Source: Candidatus Nomurabacteria bacterium (GTDB lineage: Bacteria > Patescibacteriota > Minisyncoccia > Phycocordibacterales > UBA9973). Taken from it: a DNA stretch of 64,000 nt. The translations under genes and the position numbers were made by a program. The stretch covers positions 39,362 through 103,361 of the forward strand of contig PMDZ01000008.1 of the NCBI GenBank assembly GCA_003155695.1, in the 5' to 3' direction. This document shows, one piece after another, positions 22,797 to 56,447 of this stretch. The notes beneath the pieces were generated by a model that was not told the origin of the DNA, searched no databases, and saw nothing but the letters and a program-made list of their open reading frames with translations. How positions within the stretch are numbered: position 1 is the first letter of the stretch; the number at the start of each line of letters is the position of its first letter.

Positions 22797-24482
22797 ATGA
22801 AGAAATATTTTATTTTCTTGATAATCGGTCTTGTGTTTTTAGTAGCAGGATCAAAGCTTGTTTCCGCATGTGAAGATAATACATGCAATAAAACTGATAC
22901 ACGAACTCTCGGTTGTGATACGGGTTATACCGGCTCAATAACAGAGACACGCTACGAGTCAAAAGATCGTTTCGAATGTAAATGGGGTGATTGGAAAGAA
23001 ACTTCAAATACTTGTACAATAATTCCAGTTAAAGTTGATGGAGGCTGGAGTGATTGGAGTGAAAAAGATAACTCATGTGGATATTCTGGAACACAGACTC
23101 GCACATGTACAAATCCAAGTCTTTCAAATGGAGGCGCAGATTGTGTAGGAGATTCTTCTAAAACCTATACAAACGAAAGTTGCTCTACTCCTGTCGCGAC
23201 TATTTCAGCAACAAAGATTGTTTGTCCAACTGAAGACTTACTTCCAAATTGGGGAGCAGGTGGACCAAACATAACTTCTGGAACTGCAAGTGCTTTCTTA
23301 ACAGCAAATCCTACTTGCCATTCAGTCCCTTGGACTTTCGAATGGGCACCAAAGGATACCTTAAATCCTGGAGATCAAGTTGGCGTAGCAGGCGGAGCTT
23401 GGACTTCTTTCACTGGAACTACTACAGTTCCATCAGGAAATACTGTCTGGGTTCGTGAACAATTTGACAATAACTACATTCCATTTACAGGTGTAACAAC
23501 TACTCTAAATGTTTCAGCAGAACTTTACTGTAATATAGACGTTCTAAACTTTGATAACTACGATAGAGTAGATTCAATAGTTAAAGATAACAATTACTAC
23601 TGTATCGGATTCAATGTATTAAAATCAATTCCAGTTGTCTCTTATACTGTCACTGCAAGTGCAGGTGATAATGGAACTATAACTCCAGCTTCACAAGAAG
23701 CAACTTCAGGTACAACCGTCAACTTTACTGTCACTCCAAATTCTGGATATACAGCAACAGTTGGTGGTACTTGCACAGCAGGAACACTTGTCGGAACAAC
23801 TTACACAACTGGAAATATCACAGCTGATTGTACGGTAGAAGCAACGTTTACCAAAATCCCAGCTAATTCTTTCATCCTTACGGTTGAAACACTGGGAACT
23901 GGTACTGGAGTATTTACAGGCGCCGGAACTTATACTTCCGGAACCGTAGTTACTTTAACTGCAACTCCTTCAGATAATTCAACGTTTGATGGTTGGAGTG
24001 AAAATTGTCCAGGAGGTATTGTAACCTTAACAAGTAATATAACTTGTACAGCTACATTTACTTTGAAGACAGTTACTCATCATAGCAGTGGGCATGTTAT
24101 ATCCAGTGGTTCAATTCCAACGACTGGTCAAGTTCTCGGCGCAGAAACCACTTGTGGAATTTATATCGATAAATACATGAGAATGGGACTTAAGGGTAAT
24201 GACCCGATAGCTGTGAAAAAAGTTCAGATATTCTTGAATAGTTACATGGATTCAGGACTTCTCGTTGATGGAGTATTCGGTCCTAAAACCGATACTGCAG
24301 TTAGAGCTTTCCAAACTAAACAGTTTGACAAAGTGCTAGCTCCTTGGGAACTTACTGGCTCAACTGGCATATTTTATTTGACTACTCAAACAGAAGTCAA
24401 TAATATAATGTGTCCATCGTTGAACTTACCGATTCCAGCGTTAATTCCGATAAATCAGAACCCCGCATTCCCTCAATATTAA
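22797..24482 (+). CDS. secreted multidomain surface protein: signal peptide, TSP1-like repeat, two InlB-B-repeat-like domains, C-terminal PG-binding module
   Basis: The TSP1-like block is GGWSDWSEKDNSCGYSGTQTRTCTNPSLSNGGADC. Two ..GY.ATVGG.C..G / ..STFDGWSENCPGG blocks fit the bacterial Ig-like B-repeat pattern. The C-terminus (DGVFGPKTDTAVRAFQ..) fits PG_binding_1. It is followed by the family-specific tail TGIFYLTTQTEVNNIMCP. Confidence 0.6.
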   Translation: MKKYFIFLIIGLVFLVAGSKLVSACEDNTCNKTDTRTLGCDTGYTGSITETRYESKDRFECKWGDWKETSNTCTIIPVKVDGGWSDWSEKDNSCGYSGTQTRTCTNPSLSNGGADCVGDSSKTYTNESCSTPVATISATKIVCPTEDLLPNWGAGGPNITSGTASAFLTANPTCHSVPWTFEWAPKDTLNPGDQVGVAGGAWTSFTGTTTVPSGNTVWVREQFDNNYIPFTGVTTTLNVSAELYCNIDVLNFDNYDRVDSIVKDNNYYCIGFNVLKSIPVVSYTVTASAGDNGTITPASQEATSGTTVNFTVTPNSGYTATVGGTCTAGTLVGTTYTTGNITADCTVEATFTKIPANSFILTVETLGTGTGVFTGAGTYTSGTVVTLTATPSDNSTFDGWSENCPGGIVTLTSNITCTATFTLKTVTHHSSGHVISSGSIPTTGQVLGAETTCGIYIDKYMRMGLKGNDPIAVKKVQIFLNSYMDSGLLVDGVFGPKTDTAVRAFQTKQFDKVLAPWELTGSTGIFYLTTQTEVNNIMCPSLNLPIPALIPINQNPAFPQY

Positions 24483-25083: not shown

Positions 25084-26751
25084 ATGAAAAAAAATAAATT
25101 AATGTCGAAAGTTTCGTCTTTTGTTTCAATGCTTACAATGGTTTTATCGGTTCTAGGTTTTAACGCTTTGACAGCTCAAGCAGCTGTAGCTACAGCACCA
25201 AATCCAACCTTAGGTCAATCTTGCGGAATAAAAGTCGTTTTAATTTTGGATAGCTCAGACAGTATGAGTGACGCCGATATTACAACAGTTAAAAATGATG
25301 CGAATGCATTGGTTGGTTCATTGATGCCTGCAAATCCTATAGGTGTTATTGACTTTGATACACAAGTTGTAAATTCTTTACCTCCTGCAACTGATATCAC
25401 AACCGTAACAAATGCTATCAATTCGATAGGACATACAAATGCTACCGAATCTACAAACTGGGATGCAGCTTTAAATAAAGCTTCCACAATGGTAGGAAGT
25501 GGTGATTTGGTTGTAATTATAACCGATGGTAACCCAACTACTCACGATGGCTCTGGAAATGATATTGATAATGCCGTAACTAGAGCAAATACAATCAAAA
25601 ACATGGGAGCTAGGGTTTTAGCTATTGGAATTAATAGTTCAGGGACTCAAGGTGGTCTTAATCTAGGCAACCTTGAATTAATCTCCGGAACTCAAGTTGC
25701 TAATGGAACATTTACAAATATAAACACAGCTGATGTTTATCTTGGAGATATTTCAACACTTGGTTCCGTATTGGCAAATTTAACTACAGCTTTATGTGGT
25801 GGTCAGCTTACCGTAAGTAAACAGCTATATATGGGAGAAGGAGTGGCTACTATTCCTGGCGGTGCTGGTTGGCAATTTGTTGTCAATGGGAATACTTATC
25901 CAACAGATAATAACAGTAGTATTTCGGTTCCATTTAACAAAGATACAAATGGTATTACAGTTTCCGAAGTAACTCAGACAAATTTTCCGTTTAGATCAGT
26001 TTCTTGTGCTAATGGCACACAAACTGGTGACCAACCAGAAGTCACAGGCATTTCGATCACCAAGAAAACAACAGTTAACTGTACTTTCGTAAATACCCAA
26101 CCCGATATGTGTCCGGGTGATTTGGATCCGGGAGTACAAACAAGTTCTGCTAACTGTACAGTTCCTCCAACATTATGTACAGATCCTACAGCAAATAATG
26201 TAGGATATCCGATACCTTGTACGTTCACAAAGTGTGCATACAATCCGGACATACTAGCAAGTAGTTCAGCTTGTGTTGCTCCAACTTCTAAATTATGCAC
26301 AGATAAAAAAGCAAATAACATGGGTAGTTCATTGCCATGTACTTATAACAGGGGTAGTGGCAGTCATGTATCCAGTGGTTCAATTCTAAAACCTGGTCAA
26401 GTTCTCGGCGCCGTAACTTCTTGTGGAATTTATGTAGATAAATTCTTGAAGAAAGGTTTGAAGGGGAATGACCCGGCTGCTGTCGGGAAAATTCAATCTT
26501 TCTTGAATGATTACACGAGTTCAGGATTGAATGTTGATGGCAAATTTGGCCCTATGACCGATGCTGCTCTCAAGGCTTTCCAGCTTGCTCATGCCGATAA
26601 GATTTTGACTCCATGGGGACTTACAAAGCCAACCGGCATATTCTATTTAACCACTCAAACAGCGGTTAACAATATAATGTGTCCAACACTTGATTTGCCT
26701 ATCCCAGTACTCACTCCGATGGCTCAAAACCCTTTGTTTCCTAAGTTCTAA
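25084..26751 (+). CDS. secreted VWA-domain protein with Cys-rich linker and C-terminal PG-binding module
   Basis: Signal peptide. The MIDAS motif DSSDSMS is followed by a ..ITDGNPT.. VWA pattern. The C-terminal 130 aa are paralogous to the ends of the 22797 and 50366 proteins. Confidence 0.65.
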   Translation: MKKNKLMSKVSSFVSMLTMVLSVLGFNALTAQAAVATAPNPTLGQSCGIKVVLILDSSDSMSDADITTVKNDANALVGSLMPANPIGVIDFDTQVVNSLPPATDITTVTNAINSIGHTNATESTNWDAALNKASTMVGSGDLVVIITDGNPTTHDGSGNDIDNAVTRANTIKNMGARVLAIGINSSGTQGGLNLGNLELISGTQVANGTFTNINTADVYLGDISTLGSVLANLTTALCGGQLTVSKQLYMGEGVATIPGGAGWQFVVNGNTYPTDNNSSISVPFNKDTNGITVSEVTQTNFPFRSVSCANGTQTGDQPEVTGISITKKTTVNCTFVNTQPDMCPGDLDPGVQTSSANCTVPPTLCTDPTANNVGYPIPCTFTKCAYNPDILASSSACVAPTSKLCTDKKANNMGSSLPCTYNRGSGSHVSSGSILKPGQVLGAVTSCGIYVDKFLKKGLKGNDPAAVGKIQSFLNDYTSSGLNVDGKFGPMTDAALKAFQLAHADKILTPWGLTKPTGIFYLTTQTAVNNIMCPTLDLPIPVLTPMAQNPLFPKF

Positions 26752-42142: not shown

Positions 42143-44010
42143 ATGACGAAAAAATATATTATTACAATTTTGTTTTCTTTTATTTTTCTTTTAGGATTTT
42201 CTCATTTTATTTTTGCTAATACTCTACAGCATGGAAGTGATACAATTTATACAACACAAGCAGAAAATACTTTACCTAATGTTAATTCACCCGGAAATTT
42301 AGTTTTAAGCAATAATTATACCGACTGTGCTATTTTAGGAGATTGGTTACCAACTTGGTATGTTTGTGTTGCTAATGGTTTAACAGAATCAAATACTACT
42401 CAACCCGCAGGATTATTTTATGCTAGTCAAAGTGGAACTGAAATCATACAGGCAGAAATGGGACAATGGATGAATTTAAAATTTGTATATGCACCTACGC
42501 CAACCTGTGCAGATGGTATTCTATCAGGAAATCAGTGTATTACTCTGGTACAAACAGTTTGTGCTAACAATGAATCTATTCTTGATGGAAGCGGTATGTG
42601 CAATCTTGATGACAATCAGACCCCATCGGTTTGCCCAACTGATGATTATCCTCTATTAGATCTATTAGAATATAGTCAAACTCAGTGTGAAATAGTTTAT
42701 ACGCCGCCTACTTGTCCGAGTGGTTATACTTTAGATGGTAGTCAATGTTTAGTTGTAGATACAACTCCTCCATCAACTGATACCGATGGCGATGGTGTAT
42801 TAGATACAGTCGATAATTGTCCTGCTGTTGCTAACCCAGAGCAAACAGATACCGACGGTGACGGAATTGGTGATGCCTGTGAAGCACCTGATACAACTCC
42901 ACCCGTAATCACAGGTACATTTCGTCGACAAGATCCTTCCCCCTATGACTTTGCCAAAGTTGGTGACAGAGTTCGTGTTGACTTTGAATCAAACGAGCGT
43001 GTTTACCCACAAAGTTGGGAAATTGCCGGACACAGTATTCCTAGCTATACGCCCCAGAATGCGGAGGGTACACGTTTCTATATCTATTACGACATGCAAG
43101 CAAGCGATACTGAAGGTCCACTTACTTATTCAATGACTGCTCAAGATGATGCAGGAAAGTCAACAACGGTTACCGGCGGTGGCGTTACTTTTGATAAAAC
43201 TGCGCCGGCTGTTACAGTTCCTGATGATATAGTAGAAGCCACAAGTGGTTCTGGAGCCATACTTAATTATGTTGCTAGTGCAACAGATGTAAATCCTGCA
43301 ACCCCAGAAGTGACTTGTGTTCCTCCTTCAGGTTCAACTTTCCCATTAGGAACTACAGTTGTGACCTGTTCAGCTACAGATTCTGCTGGAAATACAGGAA
43401 CAGATACTTTCAATATTACAGTTAATGAATCAGTGGATACTATACCAACCGTAGAAGATACAACTAATCCAGTTATAACTCTACTTGGAGATAATCCTGT
43501 GACCGTGACTATTGGATATACCTATCTGGATGCTGGAGCTACAGCAACAGATGATGTTGACGATGATATAACTCTAAATATTGAAGTAGGTGGCTCGGTA
43601 GATACTACAACTGTCGGTACTTATACAATTACTTACGATGTAATTGATGCTGCCGGTAATAAAGCTAACCAAGTAACTAGAACAGTGAATGTAATTCAAG
43701 CTCATAAACATAGTAGTGGTTCTTCAGGTGGTAGTATTCCTAGAATTTCTAGTAGCGGAACTGTTATAACCGGCGGGCAAGTTCTCGGTGCTGAACATTT
43801 TAACTTCACACTATTACTCAAGATGGGTTCAATGGCAATGAAGTTATGGAACTTCAAAAGTTCCTAAACAATGCAGGATATGGAATTTTAGCAGTTGATG
43901 GAATCTTTGGGCCAAAAACCAAAGCCGCAGTTATCAAATTCCAAATTGCCAGTGGACTAGCAGGGGATGGAATAGTTGGACCTCTGACACGGGCAGTTTT
44001 AAATAAATAG
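42143..44010 (+). pseudogene. secreted TSP3-repeat / HYR / DUF5011 (Ig-like) protein with C-terminal PG-binding repeats, interrupted by a frameshift near 43820
   Basis: Signal peptide. TSP type-3 Ca-binding repeats DTDGDGVLDTVDNCPAVANPEQTDTDGDGIGDAC. An HYR-like block (..VTCVPPSGSTFPLGTTVVTCSATDSAGN..). A DUF5011-like block (..LDAGATATDDVDDDITL..GTYTITYDVIDAAGN..). The ORF-track frame stops at 43867, and a PG_binding_1 pair (GYGILAVDGIFGPKTKAAVIKFQ..GDGIVGPLTRAVL) continues in the adjacent frame to 44010. A hairpin plus T-run terminator lies at ~44024-44056. Confidence 0.5.
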
Positions 44011-47290: not shown

Positions 47291-48589
47291 ATGAAAAAAT
47301 ATAGCCTAGTTGTTGTATTATCTATATGTCTTCTCGTTATTGCCACTCTATATATTTATATGTCCGGAATACAAAAAAGGGATATTACGAATATAAATCA
47401 GGATTTGCAAGCTTCTTCCCGTAATTTCATTAATAGCAGTCCCGGAACTTTTTCCATAAAAAGTATATCCGCCAAATGTGTTGCCAATCTCCCTCAAGTC
47501 AGTCTTACATGGTCACAATCAATCAAAGCAAGTTCATATCTTGTAGAACGAATGTATCCGGGAGCAAAAAGCTGGGAAATTACCGGTGAGACATCGAACT
47601 TATTTTTCACCGACACGACGTATGAACCGGGCTACGATCTCGGTTATTTTACTTACCGAGTCCAAGCCTATAATGCAAACGGTTTAAGTTATTCAAAATC
47701 ACAAAAAATAAATATATTCAAATGTCCATCCGTAGTACCGGCAATAACTGCAACGGGGAATACAAACTCTATTCCTCCTGTTGTGACAACCTCAAAAAAT
47801 ACGTTGCAATGGGGAGCGTATGTCGGTGATGAAACAAATGATCTTGCTAATTTTGAATCATTAGTAGGAAAAAAAGTTAATCTATATGCCGATTTTGAAG
47901 GATGGAATGATACTTTTCCTTCCTCTTTATCGACAAAGGTTGGAGCCCAAGGTAAAACATTGGTAATATTCTGGGAGCCGGATTTTGGCTATGATACTAT
48001 AAATAATGGTAGTAAAGATACATATATAAAACAGTTCGCAACCGGCGCAAAATCTTATGGCTATCCGATAATCCTGGCACCTTTCGATGAGATGAATCTA
48101 AACGAGGAAGCATGGGGTTATGAGGTGAACAATAATACGGCTCTCAAATTTAGAACAGCCTGGCAACATATACACGATCTTTTTGTTTCAGTGTCAACAA
48201 CAAATGTAAAATTTGCTATCACCTACAATAATGTATCGATTCCAGACGTTGCGGGAAATGAAATGAGCGATTATTATCCCGGAGATACATATGTCGATTA
48301 TGTCGGCATAGACGGTTTCAATTTTGCCGATCCATGGCAAACATTTGCTCAAATTTTTGATACGACAATCGCTCAAGTTTCAAAATTCAATAAACCGATA
48401 TATATTCTCTCGATGGCATCGGAAGCCGGAGCACAAAAAGCAAGTTGGATTACCGACGGACTTGGGGGAACGATAAAAAATTATACGAATGTTCTTGGAT
48501 GGATTTGGTTTAACGAAGGTGGTCAACCAAATTGGATTGTGAACTCGGATAGCGCGTCTCTTTCCGCTTTTAAATCAATAATTCCGTAA
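47291..48589 (+). CDS. secreted FN3-domain glycoside hydrolase (GH26-like, clan GH-A)
   Basis: Signal peptide. FN3-like block (..LTWSQS..SYLVER..). The catalytic-region look-alikes are ILAPFDEMNLNEEAWGY (GH26 HEMN-type acid/base) and KPIYILSMASEAG (nucleophile region). Confidence 0.55.
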   Translation: MKKYSLVVVLSICLLVIATLYIYMSGIQKRDITNINQDLQASSRNFINSSPGTFSIKSISAKCVANLPQVSLTWSQSIKASSYLVERMYPGAKSWEITGETSNLFFTDTTYEPGYDLGYFTYRVQAYNANGLSYSKSQKINIFKCPSVVPAITATGNTNSIPPVVTTSKNTLQWGAYVGDETNDLANFESLVGKKVNLYADFEGWNDTFPSSLSTKVGAQGKTLVIFWEPDFGYDTINNGSKDTYIKQFATGAKSYGYPIILAPFDEMNLNEEAWGYEVNNNTALKFRTAWQHIHDLFVSVSTTNVKFAITYNNVSIPDVAGNEMSDYYPGDTYVDYVGIDGFNFADPWQTFAQIFDTTIAQVSKFNKPIYILSMASEAGAQKASWITDGLGGTIKNYTNVLGWIWFNEGGQPNWIVNSDSASLSAFKSIIP

Positions 48590-48725
48590 AAATATAGATA
48601 AATACTATAAAATAGTTTCTAAAATGCCTATTTAAGTAGGGGGTATTTCTATTTGACAAAAGGTTTAGAATATGCATAATTGAGGGACCAATACAAAAAA
48701 TTTATCAATTAATTACCAATATACC

Positions 48726-49754
48726 GTGAAGATATCACTTCTAGTCCCATGCTATAACGAAGAAAAATCCCTCGAGGCATCGATAAAATCATGCCTTAAT
48801 CAAACTCGCAAGTTTGATGAGTTGGTGTTTATTGACGATTCTTCAACAGATAAGACTCCGCAAATCCTCGCAAGTTTTGGGGATAAAATTATTACACATC
48901 GTGTACCAAAGAATACCGGTAATAAATCGAGAGCTCAAGAATTCGGATTTCAGTTCGTCACCGGCGATTTTGTAGTTACCACCGATGCCGATACGCTTCT
49001 CAAACCGAACTTTGTCGAAGAAATAGAAAAGAGTTTTCAAGACCCGAAAGTCGTTGCTGTCGCCGGTGTCGTGAAAAGTTTGCCGTATAATTGGCTCACA
49101 CTTTGCCGAGCATTCGATTATGTTGTCGGACAATATATTCACAAACTCGCCCAAAGCCACATGAATTTTATTTTCGTCATGCCCGGAGCGGCAAGCGCAT
49201 TTCGTGTCGAAACATTCCGTAAATACATTACCTTTGACCACGATACGATTACCGAGGACTTGGATTTCACCTACAAGATTCACCGCAATCAATTCAAGAT
49301 TGTTTACAATCAACAGGCAATTTCTTATACACAAGACCCGACAAACCTGAAAAATTATATCAACCAATTACGACGTTGGTTTGGTGGCGGTTGGCAAAAT
49401 GTAATTAAACATTACTCAATCATCGTAACAAAACCGATTCGTGCATTTGAGCTTTCGGTTATTTACGCCGAAGGACTGATTTTTTCCGTTCTTATATTTA
49501 TAATACCGTTTCTTAATCTTTGGTTTGCTTTTTGGTTTGTCTTCGGTTATTTTACGATAGCTTTTGTTTTTGCTGTTTGGGCAGCATGGAAAGAGAAGAG
49601 ATGGGCTCTCATTTTAGTGCCGTTCCCATATATTTTTATCATGTTTGTCAATGCCTATGTTTATCTTGAACAGTTTGTAAAAGAAGTCATTTTCAGAAAG
49701 AAAAATCTTGTGTGGTTCAAACCGGATCGAGTTACAATTACCAAAACATCATAA
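48726..49754 (+). CDS. processive family-2 glycosyltransferase (PgaC/IcaA/cellulose-synthase-like polysaccharide synthase)
   Basis: GTG start. Motifs: LLVPCYNEE, the D,D,D triad (FIDDSSTD; DADT) and Q-L-R-R-W. C-terminal TM helices are present. Confidence 0.75.
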   Translation: MKISLLVPCYNEEKSLEASIKSCLNQTRKFDELVFIDDSSTDKTPQILASFGDKIITHRVPKNTGNKSRAQEFGFQFVTGDFVVTTDADTLLKPNFVEEIEKSFQDPKVVAVAGVVKSLPYNWLTLCRAFDYVVGQYIHKLAQSHMNFIFVMPGAASAFRVETFRKYITFDHDTITEDLDFTYKIHRNQFKIVYNQQAISYTQDPTNLKNYINQLRRWFGGGWQNVIKHYSIIVTKPIRAFELSVIYAEGLIFSVLIFIIPFLNLWFAFWFVFGYFTIAFVFAVWAAWKEKRWALILVPFPYIFIMFVNAYVYLEQFVKEVIFRKKNLVWFKPDRVTITKTS

Positions 49755-49761
49755 TAATATT

Positions 49762-50229
49762 ATGCCTTTCACCCCATTTATTGGTATATCGGTAATAGTT
49801 CACATTTGTGTTATCTTCGGATGTTGGCTTTTCTCCTGGATACCGACAAAGGAAAAAATAGCTCAGGGCACAACATATGTCGGTTATGCCGTAAACTCCG
49901 GTATTATTGTTGCCGTCTTTATGCTAATTTTTATTCAAGCAGGTTTTCTTGTACACGCAAGCATCGTCGACAAACACTCTTCCGTAAAATTCTTCGCCAG
50001 CTCCATAACGCAAATTAAAAAAATTAAAATTCCGGAATTATTGAATATAGTTATTGCATCAACAAATGTTTCAAGCGGGACACAATTGTCCGATAATCCT
50101 ATGGCTGATTTATTGATAAAAAATCGAACAGACAATCCTTTTATATATCAAGTCGAACCCGTTAATAATTTTAATGATTATACATATATACAGTCGAAAT
50201 TGAATGATATATCAAAAACTTTTCAATAA
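49762..50229 (+). CDS. hypothetical membrane protein
   Basis: Two TM helices. The start is taken at the MPFTPFIG ATG, just after the GT2 stop. Confidence 0.4.
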   Translation: MPFTPFIGISVIVHICVIFGCWLFSWIPTKEKIAQGTTYVGYAVNSGIIVAVFMLIFIQAGFLVHASIVDKHSSVKFFASSITQIKKIKIPELLNIVIASTNVSSGTQLSDNPMADLLIKNRTDNPFIYQVEPVNNFNDYTYIQSKLNDISKTFQ

Positions 50230-50365: not shown

Positions 50366-52753
50366 ATGAAAAATTATACAAAACCGGTGTTTGTGAAAGT
50401 AGGAATGTTTATTGTTGTTATGTCACTTTTTATTGGTTCATCAGCTGTATCGGCTGCTGTCAATGTCGTTCCGAATGCTAATCTTGAGACCCAATCAAGT
50501 GGTAACCAAAATATTCCTGACCAATGGGAAAAGGGAACCAGCGACTTAGGTGACGTTGTTACTTACACATACCCAGTAACTAGTGCTCCAGTATCCGATA
50601 TTTCAAGTGGTAATGCCGCAAAAATTGAAGCTACTTCTTTTACTTCAGATAAGGGCGCAAAATGGTATTTCACTCCGGTTCCTGTAACTCCTGGTGAGCG
50701 ATATTCTTTCAGCGATTCATATATTGCTACATCCAATACTGATTTAGTTGGAGTTTTCTGTACAGATATTTATCAAAATAATTGTACTTATGATACAACT
50801 CATTCTGTATCTGCAACACCAACTGATACATGGGAACAAGCAACCGCTTCTTTTACGGTACCGATAGGTAAAACATATATGACGGTGTTTCATCGTATTC
50901 AAGTAGCTGGTTCACTAACTATTGATAATTATAATTTAACACTCATACCTCCACCATCTCCATTTGCATCCGGATTCGTAACACTTACTTTTGATGACGG
51001 ACTATTGTCACAATTTAATAATGCTCTATCTGTACTAAATGCCGGAAATGCAAAAGCAACTTTCTTCATTCCAACCCATTTTATTTCTGGTTTTTCTATT
51101 GTTAATCCTTCGTTTGAAAATGCGCCTGGAGGTAATCCAATTGATTGGACTCAATCGGGGGGAACATCTTCTTCAACATTTACTCTTTCTTCTGATTCTC
51201 ATAATGGTGGTGCTTGGGCAGGACAAGTCAGTGATACTGTGACTACTTTAAGTAATGCTGCTTGGTCTTTCACTCCGGTAACTGTTATTCCTGATACTAT
51301 TTATTCTTTTAAAGAATATTATAAGAGTACAGCAAATTCAGAACTCGTTGCGAAAGTAACTTTAGACGATAACTCTACTACAATAACTGCTGACGTTGTG
51401 GATAGTGGTGGCGCAACTTTAGGTATTAGCGTACCGCTTCCTGCATCTGCTGATTACACTCAAACTCAAGCATATTTCTATATGCCTACTAATGCTAAAT
51501 CAGTCACAATATTAAATAAATTAACTAGCGCTGGAACTCTTACTATCGACGATGTGTCACTTGGCAGAGAAGGATATATGACGAGTGACCAAGTGCTATC
51601 ACTTCAATCAGCAGGAAATGAAATCGGTGGCCATACACAAACACACCCAGACCTCACAACAGTTACACCAACAGATCTGACAAATGAAATTAGTGGTGGT
51701 CGCCAGGACCTTATTAGTAATGGCATAACTGCTCCAGTATCGTTTGCGTATCCATTTGGCGCATACAATACAACAATTCAAGACGCTCTCACAAGTGCAG
51801 GTTACACATCTGGTCGTACCGTTTTGCCATCTGGATTTAATGATTTATCTACTCCAAAACTGTCTCTCTTCTCTCAATCAATAGATGCAAATACTACACT
51901 AGATCAAGTAGCTAACTGGATTGCTGAAGCCAAAGCAAATAAGAGCTGGTTGATTTTAACATTCCATGATATACAAAATGATATTACAGGAACTCCATAT
52001 GGAACGACACCACAAATCCTTGCTGGAATTATTTCAGACGTAACATCAGAAGGTCTTCCTATAAAAACTGTTAGCGAGGGAGTTGAATTAATGGGTAATG
52101 TAACTCCACCAACTGACCCAGTTTGTACGCTTCCTCAAGTATTAGAGAATCATGTATGTGTTACTCCAGTAGTTACTGACCCAGTTTGTACACTTCCTCA
52201 AGTATTAGAGAATCATGTATGTATCACGCCGACAAGATGCGCATACAATTCGGACCTGTTAGCAAGCGACCCACTCTGTGTTGCTCCGGCAATGTGTCAA
52301 TACAATTCTAACTTGTTAGCGAGCGATAAAGATTGTGTAGCTCCGAAAACACCAACGCATCATATATCGTCAGGTTCTATTCCGATGTCTACCCAAGGTA
52401 GTGTTCTCGGCGCCAAGACTTCTTGTGGAATTTATATAGATAAGTTTTTAGGAATGGGACTTAAGGATAATGATGTGGAAGCTGTTGAAAAAATTCAAAC
52501 TTTCTTAAATGACAATATGTCTGCAGGACTTGTTGTTGATGGATTTTTTGGTGCTATGACCAATGATGCACTTAAAGCCTTCCAGCTTGCGCATGCAGAC
52601 AAAGTCTTGGAACCTTGGGGTCTGACTGCTCCAACCGGCATATTCTACTTAACCACTCAAACGGCAGTGAATAATATAATGTGTCCGGCCTTAGATTTGC
52701 CAATCCCAGTACTCACTCCGATAGCTCTAAATCCATTGTTTCCCAAAAAATAG
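50366..52753 (+). CDS. secreted CE4 (NodB) polysaccharide deacetylase with N-terminal CBM-like domain, a second CBM-like domain inserted into the catalytic domain, and a C-terminal PG-binding module
   Basis: NodB motifs are TFDDG; H-T-Q-T-H; AYPFG; L-T-F-H-D. About 215 aa separate motif 1 from motif 2. The C-terminal 130 aa are paralogous to the ends of the 22797 and 25084 proteins. Confidence 0.7.
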   Translation: MKNYTKPVFVKVGMFIVVMSLFIGSSAVSAAVNVVPNANLETQSSGNQNIPDQWEKGTSDLGDVVTYTYPVTSAPVSDISSGNAAKIEATSFTSDKGAKWYFTPVPVTPGERYSFSDSYIATSNTDLVGVFCTDIYQNNCTYDTTHSVSATPTDTWEQATASFTVPIGKTYMTVFHRIQVAGSLTIDNYNLTLIPPPSPFASGFVTLTFDDGLLSQFNNALSVLNAGNAKATFFIPTHFISGFSIVNPSFENAPGGNPIDWTQSGGTSSSTFTLSSDSHNGGAWAGQVSDTVTTLSNAAWSFTPVTVIPDTIYSFKEYYKSTANSELVAKVTLDDNSTTITADVVDSGGATLGISVPLPASADYTQTQAYFYMPTNAKSVTILNKLTSAGTLTIDDVSLGREGYMTSDQVLSLQSAGNEIGGHTQTHPDLTTVTPTDLTNEISGGRQDLISNGITAPVSFAYPFGAYNTTIQDALTSAGYTSGRTVLPSGFNDLSTPKLSLFSQSIDANTTLDQVANWIAEAKANKSWLILTFHDIQNDITGTPYGTTPQILAGIISDVTSEGLPIKTVSEGVELMGNVTPPTDPVCTLPQVLENHVCVTPVVTDPVCTLPQVLENHVCITPTRCAYNSDLLASDPLCVAPAMCQYNSNLLASDKDCVAPKTPTHHISSGSIPMSTQGSVLGAKTSCGIYIDKFLGMGLKDNDVEAVEKIQTFLNDNMSAGLVVDGFFGAMTNDALKAFQLAHADKVLEPWGLTAPTGIFYLTTQTAVNNIMCPALDLPIPVLTPIALNPLFPKK

Positions 52754-52802: not shown

Positions 52803-55133
52803 ATGAAAAATCATATGAAATTGATTCCAATAAAACTAGGAATGTTGGTTGCTTTAATGGCGTTTTTGGTCGGCCCATCAAAAATATTCGCTTTAAGTTC
52901 CAGCAACCTTGTTCCAAACCCTCTTCTTGAAACTCCGTCGTCGGGTGATCCAAATATTCCCGACCAATGGGCAAAGGGGTATATTGACGCTAGCGATGTT
53001 GTTACTTACACATATCCAGTAACTAGTGCTCCCACATCCGATATATCTAGTGGTAATGCCGCAAAGATTGTCGCCACTACCGTTGTCTCCGGTACCGATG
53101 CCAAATGGTATTTTACTCCGGTTCCCGTAACTCCAGGCCAGCGATATGTTTTCAGTGATTCATATATATCCACAGTTGGTACGGATTTGGTTGCGTCATT
53201 CTGTACCGATATATTTCAAAATGGTTGCAGCTATGATACTTCTCAATCCATACCGGCAACACCAACCGATGTGTGGAAACAATCTTCGGCTTCATTTACG
53301 GTACCGATAGGCAAAACATATATGACGGTATTTCACCGCATACAAACAGCTGGTTCACTAACTATTGATAATTCTAGTTTGATACTCGTTCCACCACCAT
53401 CTCCATTTTCATTTGGATTTGTAACACTTACCTTTGATGACGGACTATTATCACAATTTACCAATGCCTTACCTGTCTTAGTTGCCGGAAGCGCAAAAGG
53501 AACTTTCTTTATTCCGACTCACTTTATTTCCGGTTTTTCTATTATTAATCCATCGTTTGAAAATGCAAATGGTATTAATCCAACCAACTGGTCTCATTCC
53601 GGTTCTTTAACTGCGACATACACATATTCTTCGGACGCCCATAACGGCACAAAGAGCGGACAAGTTGCTTCAACAACAGCTCTTAGTAATGCAGCCTGGT
53701 CTTTCGCACCGGTAACTATTATTCCCGATACTATTTATTCTTTCCAGGAATACTACAAGAGTACGGCAAGTTCGGAACTTGTTGCGAAAATGACTTTGAA
53801 TGACGGTACAACAATAAATGCCGATGTTGTGGATAGTGTGGGCAATACATTAGATAATAAAGTAACACTGCCTGCTGCCTCAAGCTATACTTCAACTCAA
53901 GCATATTTTTATATGCCACTTAACGCAAAATCAGTGACAATATTAAATCAGTTGACCGGTATCGGTACTTTAACTATTGACGATGTAACTCTGGGCAGAG
54001 AAGGGTATATGACCAGTAATCAAGTATCAACACTTCAAACCAAAGGAAATGAAATTGGCGGTCATACACAAACTCATCCAGATCTTACAACACTTACAAG
54101 TACCGATATGACGAATGAAATAAATGGTGGACGCCAGGATCTTCAGAGCAATGGTATAACTCCGGTTCTTTCATTCGCATATCCATTCGGTGCATATAAT
54201 ACAGCTATTCAGCAAGCACTCACAAATGCAGGTTATTCATCTGGTCGTACCGTTTTGCCATCCGGATTTAATGATTTATCTACTCCAAAATTATCCCTTT
54301 TCTCTCAAACAATAGATGCCAATACAACACTCGGTCAAGCGGAAAATTGGGTTGCTGAGGCAAAAGCAAACAAGAGTTGGTTGATTTTGACTTTCCATGA
54401 TATACAGAGCGACCTCACCAATCTTCCGTATGGAACAACACCAAAAAATCTTACGGATATTATTTCCTATATAAATACCGAGGGTATGCCGATAAAGACT
54501 ATCAGTGAGGGTGTTGCGTTGATGGGGGGGACACCGACTCCAACAGATGTCTGCCCGAACGTAACTGGTATGCAAACAACAGGTCCTTGCGCCGATACAC
54601 TCTGTGTGGCACCAAAAACCTGGAGTATATTAACTCAAACTTGTGTTGCTCCAGCTCCAGTTGATGTCTGCCCGAACGTAACCGGAGTTCAAACAACAGG
54701 TCCTTGCGCTGACACTCTTTGTGTGGCACCAAAAACTTGGAATATGACAACTCAAACTTGTGTTGCTCCAGCTCCAGTTGATGTCTGTCCGAATGTAACA
54801 GGAGTTCAAACAAAAAGTCCTTGCGCTGACACTCTTTGTGTATCACCAAAAACTTGGAATATAACAACTCAAACTTGTGTTGCTCCGGTTGATGTCTGTC
54901 CGAATGTAAGAGGAATACAGACAAAAGGTCCTTGCGCTGACACTCTTTGTGTGGCACCAAAAACTTGGAGAATATTAACTCAAACTTGTATTGCACCGGC
55001 TTCGGCGGATATTTGTCCCAAGGTAAAAGGAGTTCAAACAACAGGTCCTTGTGCCGATACTCTTTGTGTGGCACCAAAAACTTGGAGTATATTAACTCAA
55101 ACCTGTATCAAGTGGATATTTAGCTCAAAGTAA
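52803..55133 (+). CDS. paralogous CBM/CE4 deacetylase with C-terminal 5x tandem 39-aa Cys repeats (no PG-binding module)
   Basis: The N-terminal ~560 aa are collinear with the 50366 product, with the same NodB motifs. The C-terminus is DVCPNVTGVQTTGPCADTLCVAPKTW..TQTCVAPAPV repeated five times. Confidence 0.7.
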   Translation: MKNHMKLIPIKLGMLVALMAFLVGPSKIFALSSSNLVPNPLLETPSSGDPNIPDQWAKGYIDASDVVTYTYPVTSAPTSDISSGNAAKIVATTVVSGTDAKWYFTPVPVTPGQRYVFSDSYISTVGTDLVASFCTDIFQNGCSYDTSQSIPATPTDVWKQSSASFTVPIGKTYMTVFHRIQTAGSLTIDNSSLILVPPPSPFSFGFVTLTFDDGLLSQFTNALPVLVAGSAKGTFFIPTHFISGFSIINPSFENANGINPTNWSHSGSLTATYTYSSDAHNGTKSGQVASTTALSNAAWSFAPVTIIPDTIYSFQEYYKSTASSELVAKMTLNDGTTINADVVDSVGNTLDNKVTLPAASSYTSTQAYFYMPLNAKSVTILNQLTGIGTLTIDDVTLGREGYMTSNQVSTLQTKGNEIGGHTQTHPDLTTLTSTDMTNEINGGRQDLQSNGITPVLSFAYPFGAYNTAIQQALTNAGYSSGRTVLPSGFNDLSTPKLSLFSQTIDANTTLGQAENWVAEAKANKSWLILTFHDIQSDLTNLPYGTTPKNLTDIISYINTEGMPIKTISEGVALMGGTPTPTDVCPNVTGMQTTGPCADTLCVAPKTWSILTQTCVAPAPVDVCPNVTGVQTTGPCADTLCVAPKTWNMTTQTCVAPAPVDVCPNVTGVQTKSPCADTLCVSPKTWNITTQTCVAPVDVCPNVRGIQTKGPCADTLCVAPKTWRILTQTCIAPASADICPKVKGVQTTGPCADTLCVAPKTWSILTQTCIKWIFSSK

Positions 55134-55172
55134 GAGGAATACAAACAACAGGTCCTTCATGTGTTTTTTTCT
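54546..55172 (+). repeat. tandem DNA repeat, period 117 bp (one 111-bp unit), about 5.3 copies; last copy degenerate and extends past the stop codon
   Basis: Unit starts at ~54546, 54663, 54780, 54891 and 55008. A decayed partial unit (..gtaagaggaatacaaacaacaggtcct..) follows the TAA at 55133. Confidence 0.8.
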
Positions 55173-55217
55173 TTGCCTGTTGGGTAATTATAATTTTTGT
55201 TATATAATATATCGAGC

Positions 55218-56447
55218 ATGGCAGATAAAAAAATAACAGATATAAAAGCGGAACAAATACTAGATTCAAGGAAAAATCCGACTCTCAAAGTATCGGTTTA
55301 CGTTGGCGATATAATTGGAAGCTTTGAAGTTCCATCTGGCGCCAGTACCGGTAAATATGAAGCTTGCGAACTTCGTGATGGAGAAGGCGGGAAAAGTGGT
55401 GTTTTAAATGCAATTAATAAAATAAACACCATAATAAAACCTATTTTACTTGGAATAGAAGTAGACCAACAGAAGCAAATTGACGAGATAATGATAAAAC
55501 TCGACGGCACATCTCAAAAAACAAATTTGGGTGGCAACAGTATGATTGGCGTAAGTATTGCTTGTGCGAAGACTGCCGCTAAAGTCTCGGGAATGGAAGT
55601 TTATGAATATTTAAAGACTCTTGCTTCAATAACTTCATCTCGTAAAGAACCATTTTTATATTTTAACCTTATAAACGGGGGCAAACATGCCGCCACACGA
55701 TTGGCTTTTCAAGAATTCCATATTGTCCCCCAAACAGGAACATCAAGTGAAAGTGTCAGAATCAGTCAAGACATTCAAAAAAAATTAGATGAAATTATTC
55801 TAAAAGAGCTCGGTGGACCAATAAAAAAAGGAGACGAAGGAGGAGTAGCACTCGATGTGGAAGATATATTTGTGCCGCTTAAACTTTTACAAAAAGCCGT
55901 CACTGAGCTTGTATATACGGATAAAATAAAATATGCCCTAGACGTTGCGGCTAGTTCTTTCTATGACCACGATGCCGGTATCTACAAATTCATGAAAAAA
56001 GATTGGACAAAAGACGATATGATAAATCTTTACGAAAAAATTTGTCACGATTTCCCGATGATTTCCATAGAAGACCCATTTGATGAGGAAGATTTTGAAA
56101 GTTTTTCTAAATTGCAGGAAAAAATAAGCGATATAAAATTAATTGGCGATGATTTGACTGTGACCAATACAGTAAGGCTCCAAAAAGCCATAAATGAAAA
56201 AAGTATAAAAGGAATAATAATTAAACCAAATCAAATCGGAACTTTGACCGAGACACTCGAAACGATGAAGCTTGCCCGAAATAATAATATTGATTGTATT
56301 ATCAGCCACCGAAGCGGAGAAACAATGGATGATTTCATTGCTGACCTTGCCTGTGCCTTTGGTTGTTTCGGTATTAAAGCCGGAGCATTGGGACCACAAG
56401 AGCGAAACGTGAAATATGAGAGAATTATTAAAATAACAGAAAAATAA
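55218..56447 (+). CDS. eno: enolase
   Basis: [23 protein letters not shown], and IKPNQIGT blocks. The ATG at 55218 is preferred over 55197. Confidence 0.85.

Follow-up and report, generated by a model that had tools for sequence, protein, structure and literature searches.

Surface proteins of Gram-positive bacteria, such as Rib, alpha C, and those with Sdr or Cna B repeats, possess in-frame tandem domain repeats that form stalks and vary in number. The deacetylases of carbohydrate esterase family 4 (CE4/NodB; e.g., PgdA, PgaB/IcaB, HfsH, and NodB) share a Polysacc_deac_1 domain with the motifs TFDDG and H-T-x-x-H, and in exopolysaccharide loci the deacetylase gene stands beside the gene of a glycosyltransferase family 2 (GT2) synthase. 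Simple-sequence-repeat contingency loci place repetitive DNA in surface-protein genes. Gene D, found in a 64,000-nt stretch of contig PMDZ01000008.1 from a Candidatus Nomurabacteria bacterium (the whole stretch is called the window here, and positions refer to it), resembles each of these systems in part. It encodes a predicted CE4/NodB polysaccharide deacetylase, has a GT2 gene as a neighbor, and ends in a tandem array of 117-bp units. An earlier reading of this DNA made without database searches (the sequence-only reading) had proposed that slippage or repeat-mediated deletion in this array removed a wall anchor from the gene, and that the copy number may be variable, as in a contingency locus.

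Compared with described CE4 enzymes, D has a domain matching no family ahead of its NodB domain, which is itself interrupted by a CBM_4_9-like insert, and a C-terminal array of cysteine modules is not known from any described CE4 enzyme. As in the Gram-positive stalk proteins, long in-frame DNA repeats in the D family would each encode one small autonomous domain, the repeats in the relatives of D connect a functional head to a wall anchor, and the units of D are homogenized within the lineage, with a copy number that can change by recombination between units. Unlike in those proteins, the unit is a four-Cys mini-domain of 33-36 residues rather than an Ig-like fold, the anchor of the relatives is a non-covalent PG_binding_1 domain rather than LPXTG, D itself has no anchor, and its unit number is only putatively variable. 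A stalk between head and anchor is found in P0003, the nearest outgroup protein, and in many proteins of the candidate phyla radiation (CPR), but in D the array is terminal. In contrast to contingency loci, the units of D are 117 bp long and in frame, only 82-92% identical, and under purifying selection, and gain or loss of a unit cannot switch the frame.

The explanation that we favor, at a probability of roughly two in three, is that D is an old, stable, and functional anchor-less enzyme bearing a chain of Cys modules, which lost its tail by a frameshift in a linker and coexists with an anchored paralog, U. The chain of the D lineage would once have run into at least a sixth unit and, on the most parsimonious view, have ended in a PG_binding_1 tail. 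The linker after unit 5 is prone to slippage, and an indel there would have shifted the frame, after which the sixth unit would have decayed and a deletion would have taken out whatever lay from there to the enolase promoter. This would have left a C-terminus of five small, independently folding four-Cys mini-domains joined by short Ala/Pro linkers, whose number and sequence would drift through recombination within the array (concerted evolution) without on/off switching.

Tandem Repeats Finder, run as the sequence-only reading had suggested, reports the array at 54546-55106 with a period of 117, 4.8 copies, 86% matches, 2% indels, and a score of 751. No other tandem repeat in the window comes near it in strength, and it takes up the 3' end of gene D, within the last 590 nt of the open reading frame (ORF). 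Five units (54546-55114) are translated in the frame of the ORF at 52803-55133, and a repeat search places six copies in all, at spacings of 117, 117, 111, 117, and 107. The 111-bp unit is short by one copy of the 6-bp GCTCCA doublet (GCTCCA-GCTCCA) that encodes the Ala-Pro linker. The five-copy in-frame array with a single 111-bp unit was therefore correctly described, with the addition that the last unit measures 107 bp; the description of the units as nearly identical does not hold, as they are 82-92% identical over their first 102 nt (differences of 8-18%). The repeat search found no inverted repeats in the array, and an inverted-repeat or hairpin role for it was rejected on this ground.

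Alignment to the intact junction between units 4 and 5 shows that 10 nt have been lost from the linker after unit 5, shifting the reading frame. The decayed head of a sixth unit follows (Table 1). Of its 43 positions, 36 agree with unit 5, none of 2000 shuffles scored as high in alignment to units 4 and 5, and a 28-mer of unit 4 recurs at 55130-55157 with 2 mismatches (chance expectation 0.00). In its own frame this head reads DI*LKVRGIQTTGPS, the invariant Cys-Pro codons TGTCCC having changed to TAGCTC, so that a TAG at 55121-55123 replaces the invariant Cys codon. The odd C-terminus of D, IKWIFSSK*, is the same sixth-unit head read out of frame, and both the KWIFSSK reading and the stop at TAA 55131-55133 result from the 10 nt lost in the linker. 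Repeat DNA had been reported to continue beyond this TAA, and it does so for 24 nt, but the remnant starts 16 nt before the stop, inside the ORF and in the shifted frame. Repeat similarity ends after 55157. PF01471 (PG_binding_1) was not detected in gene D even at E<=10 on the C-terminal 200 residues. Searches by tblastn with the peptidoglycan (PG)-binding tails of U and P0003 returned nothing significant at 55134-55217, the only match in the gene D region being a Pro-rich linker hit (E = 0.53), and a surviving remnant of the tail between the stop of gene D and enolase was rejected on this basis.

The homologs of D support the loss of a wall-binding tail from its lineage. The upstream paralog U does end in a PG-binding module, as the sequence-only reading had noted (PF01471, E = 1.7e-5). 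D and U are 66% identical (BLASTP, to about residue 645), or 75-78% over ungapped catalytic columns, and cease to resemble each other in the region of the Cys repeats. P0003 shares 64-65% identity with D, against 59-61% with U, and falls outside the pair in 1000 of 1000 bootstrap quartets. It is the sole deacetylase after the GT2 gene on its contig, and its C-terminus consists of two copies of the same 39-residue unit, a Pro/Thr linker, and a classical PG_binding_1 domain, in that order. The tails of U and P0003 are homologous from the SGSIP...VLG lead-in onward (40% identity over 78 residues, E = 1e-8), and PF01471 recurs in the more distant P0006, P0007, P0010, and P0018, where it is C-terminal in P0006 and P0007, the two whose sequences were read. 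Two other members of the family, P0004 and P0005, lack a tail altogether. Given the repeat and tail of P0003, the homology of the U and P0003 tails, and PF01471 in distant members, the most parsimonious ancestor would have possessed a head, Cys modules, a linker, and PG_binding_1, of which D would have lost the last part. D has stayed nearer to P0003, the outgroup, than U has, which argues that D is not decaying.

A related species, represented by locus L038, bears on the age of this loss. The L038 deacetylase is about 82% identical to D in nucleotides and 83% in amino acids, with a synonymous divergence (dS) of 0.68 and a nonsynonymous-to-synonymous ratio (dN/dS) of 0.148. The locus holds, in order, a GH26-like gene, a GT2 gene, a gene for a small protein, one D-type deacetylase gene, and enolase, which is the downstream neighbor of the deacetylase in the window as well. 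The L038 gene ends ...TWNTIFQTCIARKK (...TQTCIARKK), 106 nt before the enolase ATG; it runs for a few codons beyond Cys 4 of its final unit, with the conserved enolase promoter lying immediately downstream, and has neither a PG-binding domain nor a clearly recognizable unit remnant. The linker after the last Cys measures 14 nt in L038 and 5 nt in the window, as against 15 nt in an intact junction, so the frame is shifted alike in both species, which read the head of the next unit as K-[W/*]-I-F-[S/Y]-S. Window and L038 align from about 55158 on, including a TTGGGT-17-TATAAT element that ends 9 nt before the ATG, and this position marks the right-hand limit of the deletion. The tail-less end was probably inherited from the common ancestor, two origins at the same place being less parsimonious. 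Since dS between D and L038 (0.68) is lower than between D and U (0.96) or U and L038 (1.14), the duplication that gave rise to D and U is placed before the D/L038 split. That the tail-less form is common to both species, together with purifying selection, argues that D is a stable, functional anchor-less isoform. An origin of truncated D as a by-product of tandem gene duplication was rejected, as simple duplication would leave the truncated copy upstream and D is downstream.

The units themselves are under purifying selection. Their pooled ratio of nonsynonymous to synonymous differences (pN/pS) is 0.29 and most differences between them are synonymous, which indicates that selection on the protein maintains them. 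Between units, dS runs from 0.14 to 0.72, and the longest identical stretches between two units are 44, 39, and 29 nt. Units within a lineage are more alike than units of different lineages, and some inter-unit dS values (0.14-0.21) are below the D-L038 species value, both of which are indicative of concerted evolution. As the units are homogenized within each lineage, variation in unit number is plausible on an evolutionary time scale. The resolved units of L038 are more alike than those of the window, suggesting that the L038 array was the more recently homogenized of the two.

Several observations weigh against the favored explanation. The L038 stretch between the stop and the conserved part is AT-rich and only marginally unit-like, about 5% of shuffles scoring equally, and so the two truncations may be independent, or gene conversion may have renewed the remnant seen in the window. 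That remnant, at 84% identity to unit 5, is better preserved than neutral decay since a split at dS 0.68 predicts, and its preservation may be due to gene conversion by the adjacent array. For the branching of D, U, and L038, and with it the placing of the duplication before the D/L038 split, protein-quartet support is only moderate: 795 of 1000 bootstraps agree, and the three possible groupings draw 12, 7, and 5 informative sites. No direct ancestor was found that combines at least six units with a tail, and the anchor cassette is modular in this genome, where three proteins carry a tail of the type found in U, making separate gains of a tail by P0003 and U possible.

That last point underlies an alternative in which D never had a tail: its ancestor would have ended in a longer array and lost one or a few units, while P0003 and U gained their anchors separately by domain shuffling. 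In the 3' part of U, a 63-bp two-Cys repeat and additional units with two Cys precede a C-terminal cassette containing PG_binding_1 (about 52331-52750), and this long-form cassette, with the pattern SGSI..GQVLGA.TSCGIY.DK..PG_binding_1..TGIFYLTTQT.VNNIMCP.L.LPIP.L.P..NP.FP., is shared by an InlB-B-repeat protein and a VWA protein. The tails of these two (ORFs 22797-24482 and 25084-26751) are 64% and 79% identical to that of U, the tail of P0003 is of the short classical form, and P0004 and P0005 are tail-less. A recent origin of the U tail as a copy from a different surface-protein gene was rejected, dS among the three long-form tails being at least 1.0; the three cassettes are, on their sequences, old paralogs with no sign of recent gene conversion. 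The homology of the U and P0003 tails from their common lead-in, the occurrence of PF01471 at several depths of the family (P0003, P0006, P0007, P0010, and P0018), and the greater parsimony of one loss over repeated gains at the same position lead us to consider a never-tailed D unlikely.

Other assemblies of the locus bear on the events envisaged by the sequence-only reading. L002 (a WOOD18-1 scaffold) and L003 (a k141 contig), which together with the window come from different assemblers and samples, have an array and tail identical to those of the window, with five units. L001 (GCA_003155385.1) has four; it is 100% identical to the window over 8.8 kb apart from a clean 117-bp loss whose junction lies within 39 nt of identical sequence, at 54632-54670 and again 117 nt further downstream. 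The view of L001 as a distinct strain with 13 single-nucleotide polymorphisms (0.2% divergence) was rejected, as these are a BLAST register artifact inside the array. Five units are thus present in three of the four compared sequences of this population, and the frameshift after unit 5 is fixed in all assemblies. The assembled sequences are compatible with both true copy-number heterogeneity and assembly collapse as the source of the L001 difference. The same holds for the 63-bp array of U, which has 2, 3, or 4 copies among assemblies (795, 816, or 837 residues) and at which assemblies break, L001 and L003 ending there and L002 containing a 100-N gap. In the related species the 117-bp array is incomplete, with a 100-N scaffold gap in L038 (5203-5302) and the L040 contig ending in unit 1.

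A recent removal of the anchor by slippage or recombination in the array, in a hypervariable contingency locus whose copy number changes in the population, has in its favor a recognizable sixth-unit remnant past the stop, a four-unit assembly formed by a clean 117-bp deletion at a 39-nt identical stretch, and the differing copy numbers of the breakage-prone array in U. We nevertheless judge this very unlikely. The tail-less end is common with a species at dS 0.68, so the event is not a recent one in this genome; the units are diverged and under purifying selection; and five units are found in three of four population sequences, including an assembly made at k=141. Contingency repeats change the frame or the promoter spacing, and here the intact units are 117 or 111 bp, multiples of three, so that a change in copy number alters the length of the protein and cannot toggle its expression. 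Unit-to-unit recombination removes only units and cannot delete a non-repeat tail, and the visible lesions are of another kind, namely the 10-nt linker indel, point damage in the Cys-Pro codon pair, and a deletion further downstream, distinct from these, that ends near 55157. Of the earlier proposal, the loss of the wall anchor is supported by the repeat and PG_binding_1 of P0003 and the homologous tail of U, and repeat-mediated deletion as its cause is not supported. The ortholog in L038 likewise has a tail-less C-terminus with no clear remnant, which is close to the outcome that had been named as refuting the proposal. That the array, its copy number, or the truncated end is an assembly artifact is extremely improbable. 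Short-read assemblies do break or gap at both arrays (L001, L002, L003, and L038), and the four- and five-unit versions differ exactly at the 39-nt repeat; against this, five units and the tail are identical in the window, L002, and L003, differences of 8-18% between units are enough for unique placement, and the related species has the same architecture.

The units of D belong to a module with the consensus D-x-C-P-N-V-x-G-x-Q-x2-G-P-C-A-D-x2-C-x5-6-W-x4-6-C, in which all of 78 modules keep D, C, G, Q, C, W, and C, and the third Cys is near-invariant (at least 90% of modules). AlphaFold models one unit with a mean predicted local distance difference test (pLDDT) of 94.6 from the 78-sequence alignment; the model shows a short helix (20-23) and a beta-hairpin (29-31/36-38) (a model from a shallow 14-sequence alignment, pLDDT 61.6, was not used), and each DNA unit is accordingly predicted to encode one autonomous, compact folded domain. 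Pfam gave only sub-threshold noise for the module, whole-protein NCBIfam scans of D, U, P0122, and P0125 yielded no family covering it, a sequence profile search of the PDB produced no match at E<=1, and Foldseek of the model against the PDB found no significant match (best E = 8.6). No literature on the module or on this metagenome-assembled genome was found. A known element that resembles the module is a short repeat, CPNxxGxQ, found in surface proteins of CPR bacteria and actinobacteria (e.g., P0125) and itself absent from Pfam and NCBIfam, which matches the first 18 positions of the module profile; the D-type unit adds a C-terminal half, C-A-D-x2-C-x5-6-W-x4-6-C, with two more Cys and a beta-hairpin.

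A profile built from the units of the window and their closest relatives, searched in 1.84 billion protein representatives, matched 332 protein clusters at E<=1e-3 and 108 at E<=1e-10; among the best 148 matches, the full four-Cys module is present in 61 and only the CPNxxGxQ half in 83. A DNA pattern for C-P-N-V-x-G-x-Q-x2-G-P-C-A-D found 25 metagenome loci and 9 loci in species-representative genomes, all 9 in Saccharibacteria, Paceibacterota, Parcubacteria, or Kaiserbacteria; the named genomes with the module are all Patescibacteria (CPR). In other proteins, a single module or an array of as many as seven stands between heads of various kinds and other domains, and many of these proteins continue with a Gly-rich linker and a C-terminal PG_binding_1-like tail. 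The cysteines probably form disulfides, a chain of modules would make a disulfide-stapled stalk or spacer, and the invariant Trp could possibly contact glycan. D-type units (54546-54900) bear N-x-T sequons (CPNVTG, WNMTT, and WNITT) at their most variable positions, and P0003 has the NVT motif in both units and N-M-T in the first unit only. The 21-residue two-Cys unit of U, which Tandem Repeats Finder did not list, resembles the second half of the 39-residue module.

The source genome of gene D is of Patescibacteria (CPR) type and comes from peat. From the N-terminus onward, the D protein has a signal peptide, a domain matching no family, the split NodB domain, and five Cys modules. By its sequence D is a member of the CE4/NodB polysaccharide deacetylase family: it exceeds the gathering score of Polysacc_deac_1 (PF01522; 69.8 bits, cut-off 23.1; E = 2.7e-19), and the catalytic motifs TLTFDDG and GGHTQTHPD, which contain the Asp-Asp of TFDD and the metal-binding H-[ST]-x-x-H, are found in D, U, L038, and P0003. 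Its closest NCBIfam likeness is to HfsH (E = 7e-22), far under the family cut-off, and the CBM_4_9 match at residues 247-371 is weak and under the Pfam cut-off. The CBM_4_9-like insert of about 125 residues lies between TFDDG and HTQTH (53400-54540, D residues ~200-580); the split arrangement also occurs in U and is conserved through the whole homolog family. Proteins identical to D are present in NCBI, ENA, and JGI assemblies, and a search with the whole protein found no relative in the species-representative genomes.

The features of the locus are collected in Table 1. The GH26-like, GT2, and small-protein genes upstream also precede the deacetylase in L038 and on the contig of P0003. The probable enolase promoter was read by eye, and a consensus promoter scan did not list it. 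There is no Shine-Dalgarno sequence between its -10 box and the enolase ATG, and the geometry is identical in L038 (5456-5498); the ATG lying only 9 nt past the -10 box, with no Shine-Dalgarno and with the same geometry in a related species, suggests that the enolase mRNA is leaderless.

Table 1. Features of the gene D locus and of related elements in the window (aa, amino acids).
Feature	Position	Strand	Basis or remark
Gene D	52803..55133	+	ORF, 776 aa; predicted secreted CE4/NodB polysaccharide deacetylase
Repeat unit 1	54546..54662	+	117 bp, 39 aa; encodes DVCPNVTGMQTTGPCADTLCVAPKTWSILTQTCVAPAPV
Repeat unit 2	54663..54779	+	117 bp; missing from assembly L001
Repeat unit 3	54780..54890	+	111 bp; linker GCTCCGGTT in place of GCTCCAGCTCCAGTT
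Repeat unit 4	54891..55007	+	117 bp
Repeat unit 5	55008..55114	+	107 bp; 3' linker 10 nt shorter than the intact one
Decayed sixth-unit head	55115..55157	+	43 nt; straddles TAA 55131-55133
Probable enolase promoter, TTGGGT-17 nt-TATAAT	55180..55208	+	read by eye; ends 9 nt before ATG at 55218
Enolase	55218..56447	+	Pfam Enolase_N and Enolase_C; gene calls in L001-L003 and L038
Gene U, upstream paralog	50366..52753	+	ORF, 795 aa
63-bp (21-aa) tandem repeat in U	52112..52230	+	DPVCTLPQVLENHVC[VI]TP; 2 copies here
Upstream genes: GH26-like, GT2 (chitin/PNAG-synthase-like), small membrane protein	47291..50229	+	Pfam, gene order
Long-form anchor cassettes	24066-24479, 26395-26748, 52331-52750	+	in three unrelated surface proteins

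Elsewhere, the long-form tail also ends proteins in other CPR loci (L027 and L037). In the window, the ORF at 42143-43867 (+) encodes a 574-residue surface protein with TSP_3, HYR, and Ig-like domains that ends ...GQVLGAEHFNFTLLLKMGSMAMKLWNFKSS*, and its classical PG_binding_1 tail lies in another frame, in an overlapping 54-residue ORF at 43846-44010 that is 68% identical to the tail of P0003. A 1-nt loss near 43833-43838 cuts the anchor off this protein, and both products of the frameshift in 42143-44010 are found on 5 contigs from NCBI, JGI, and ENA. It is the second protein in this genome, after D, to be severed from its wall-binding tail.

In conclusion, a repeat remnant past a stop codon can mark an old, fixed truncation of a working gene and not necessarily a hypermutable switch, which is a point of use for annotation. 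The practical value of the finding is modest, and current understanding is not overturned. Its most interesting by-product is an unannotated four-Cys module family of CPR surface proteins, a widespread and putative building block of their stalks that merits a family definition and a solved structure. We would advance more tentatively, at less than even confidence, the broader idea that the 39-residue unit is an undescribed, confidently foldable four-Cys mini-domain serving as the stalk of many Patescibacteria surface enzymes and adhesins, and that the shedding of anchors may be a recurrent route from tethered to released forms in these episymbionts. For CPR biology, the locus presents a matched enzyme pair, wall-anchored U and anchor-less D, beside a GT2 polysaccharide synthase; D would be the released and U the wall-tethered form of the same enzyme, and both may act on the polymer made by the adjacent synthase as their putative substrate.

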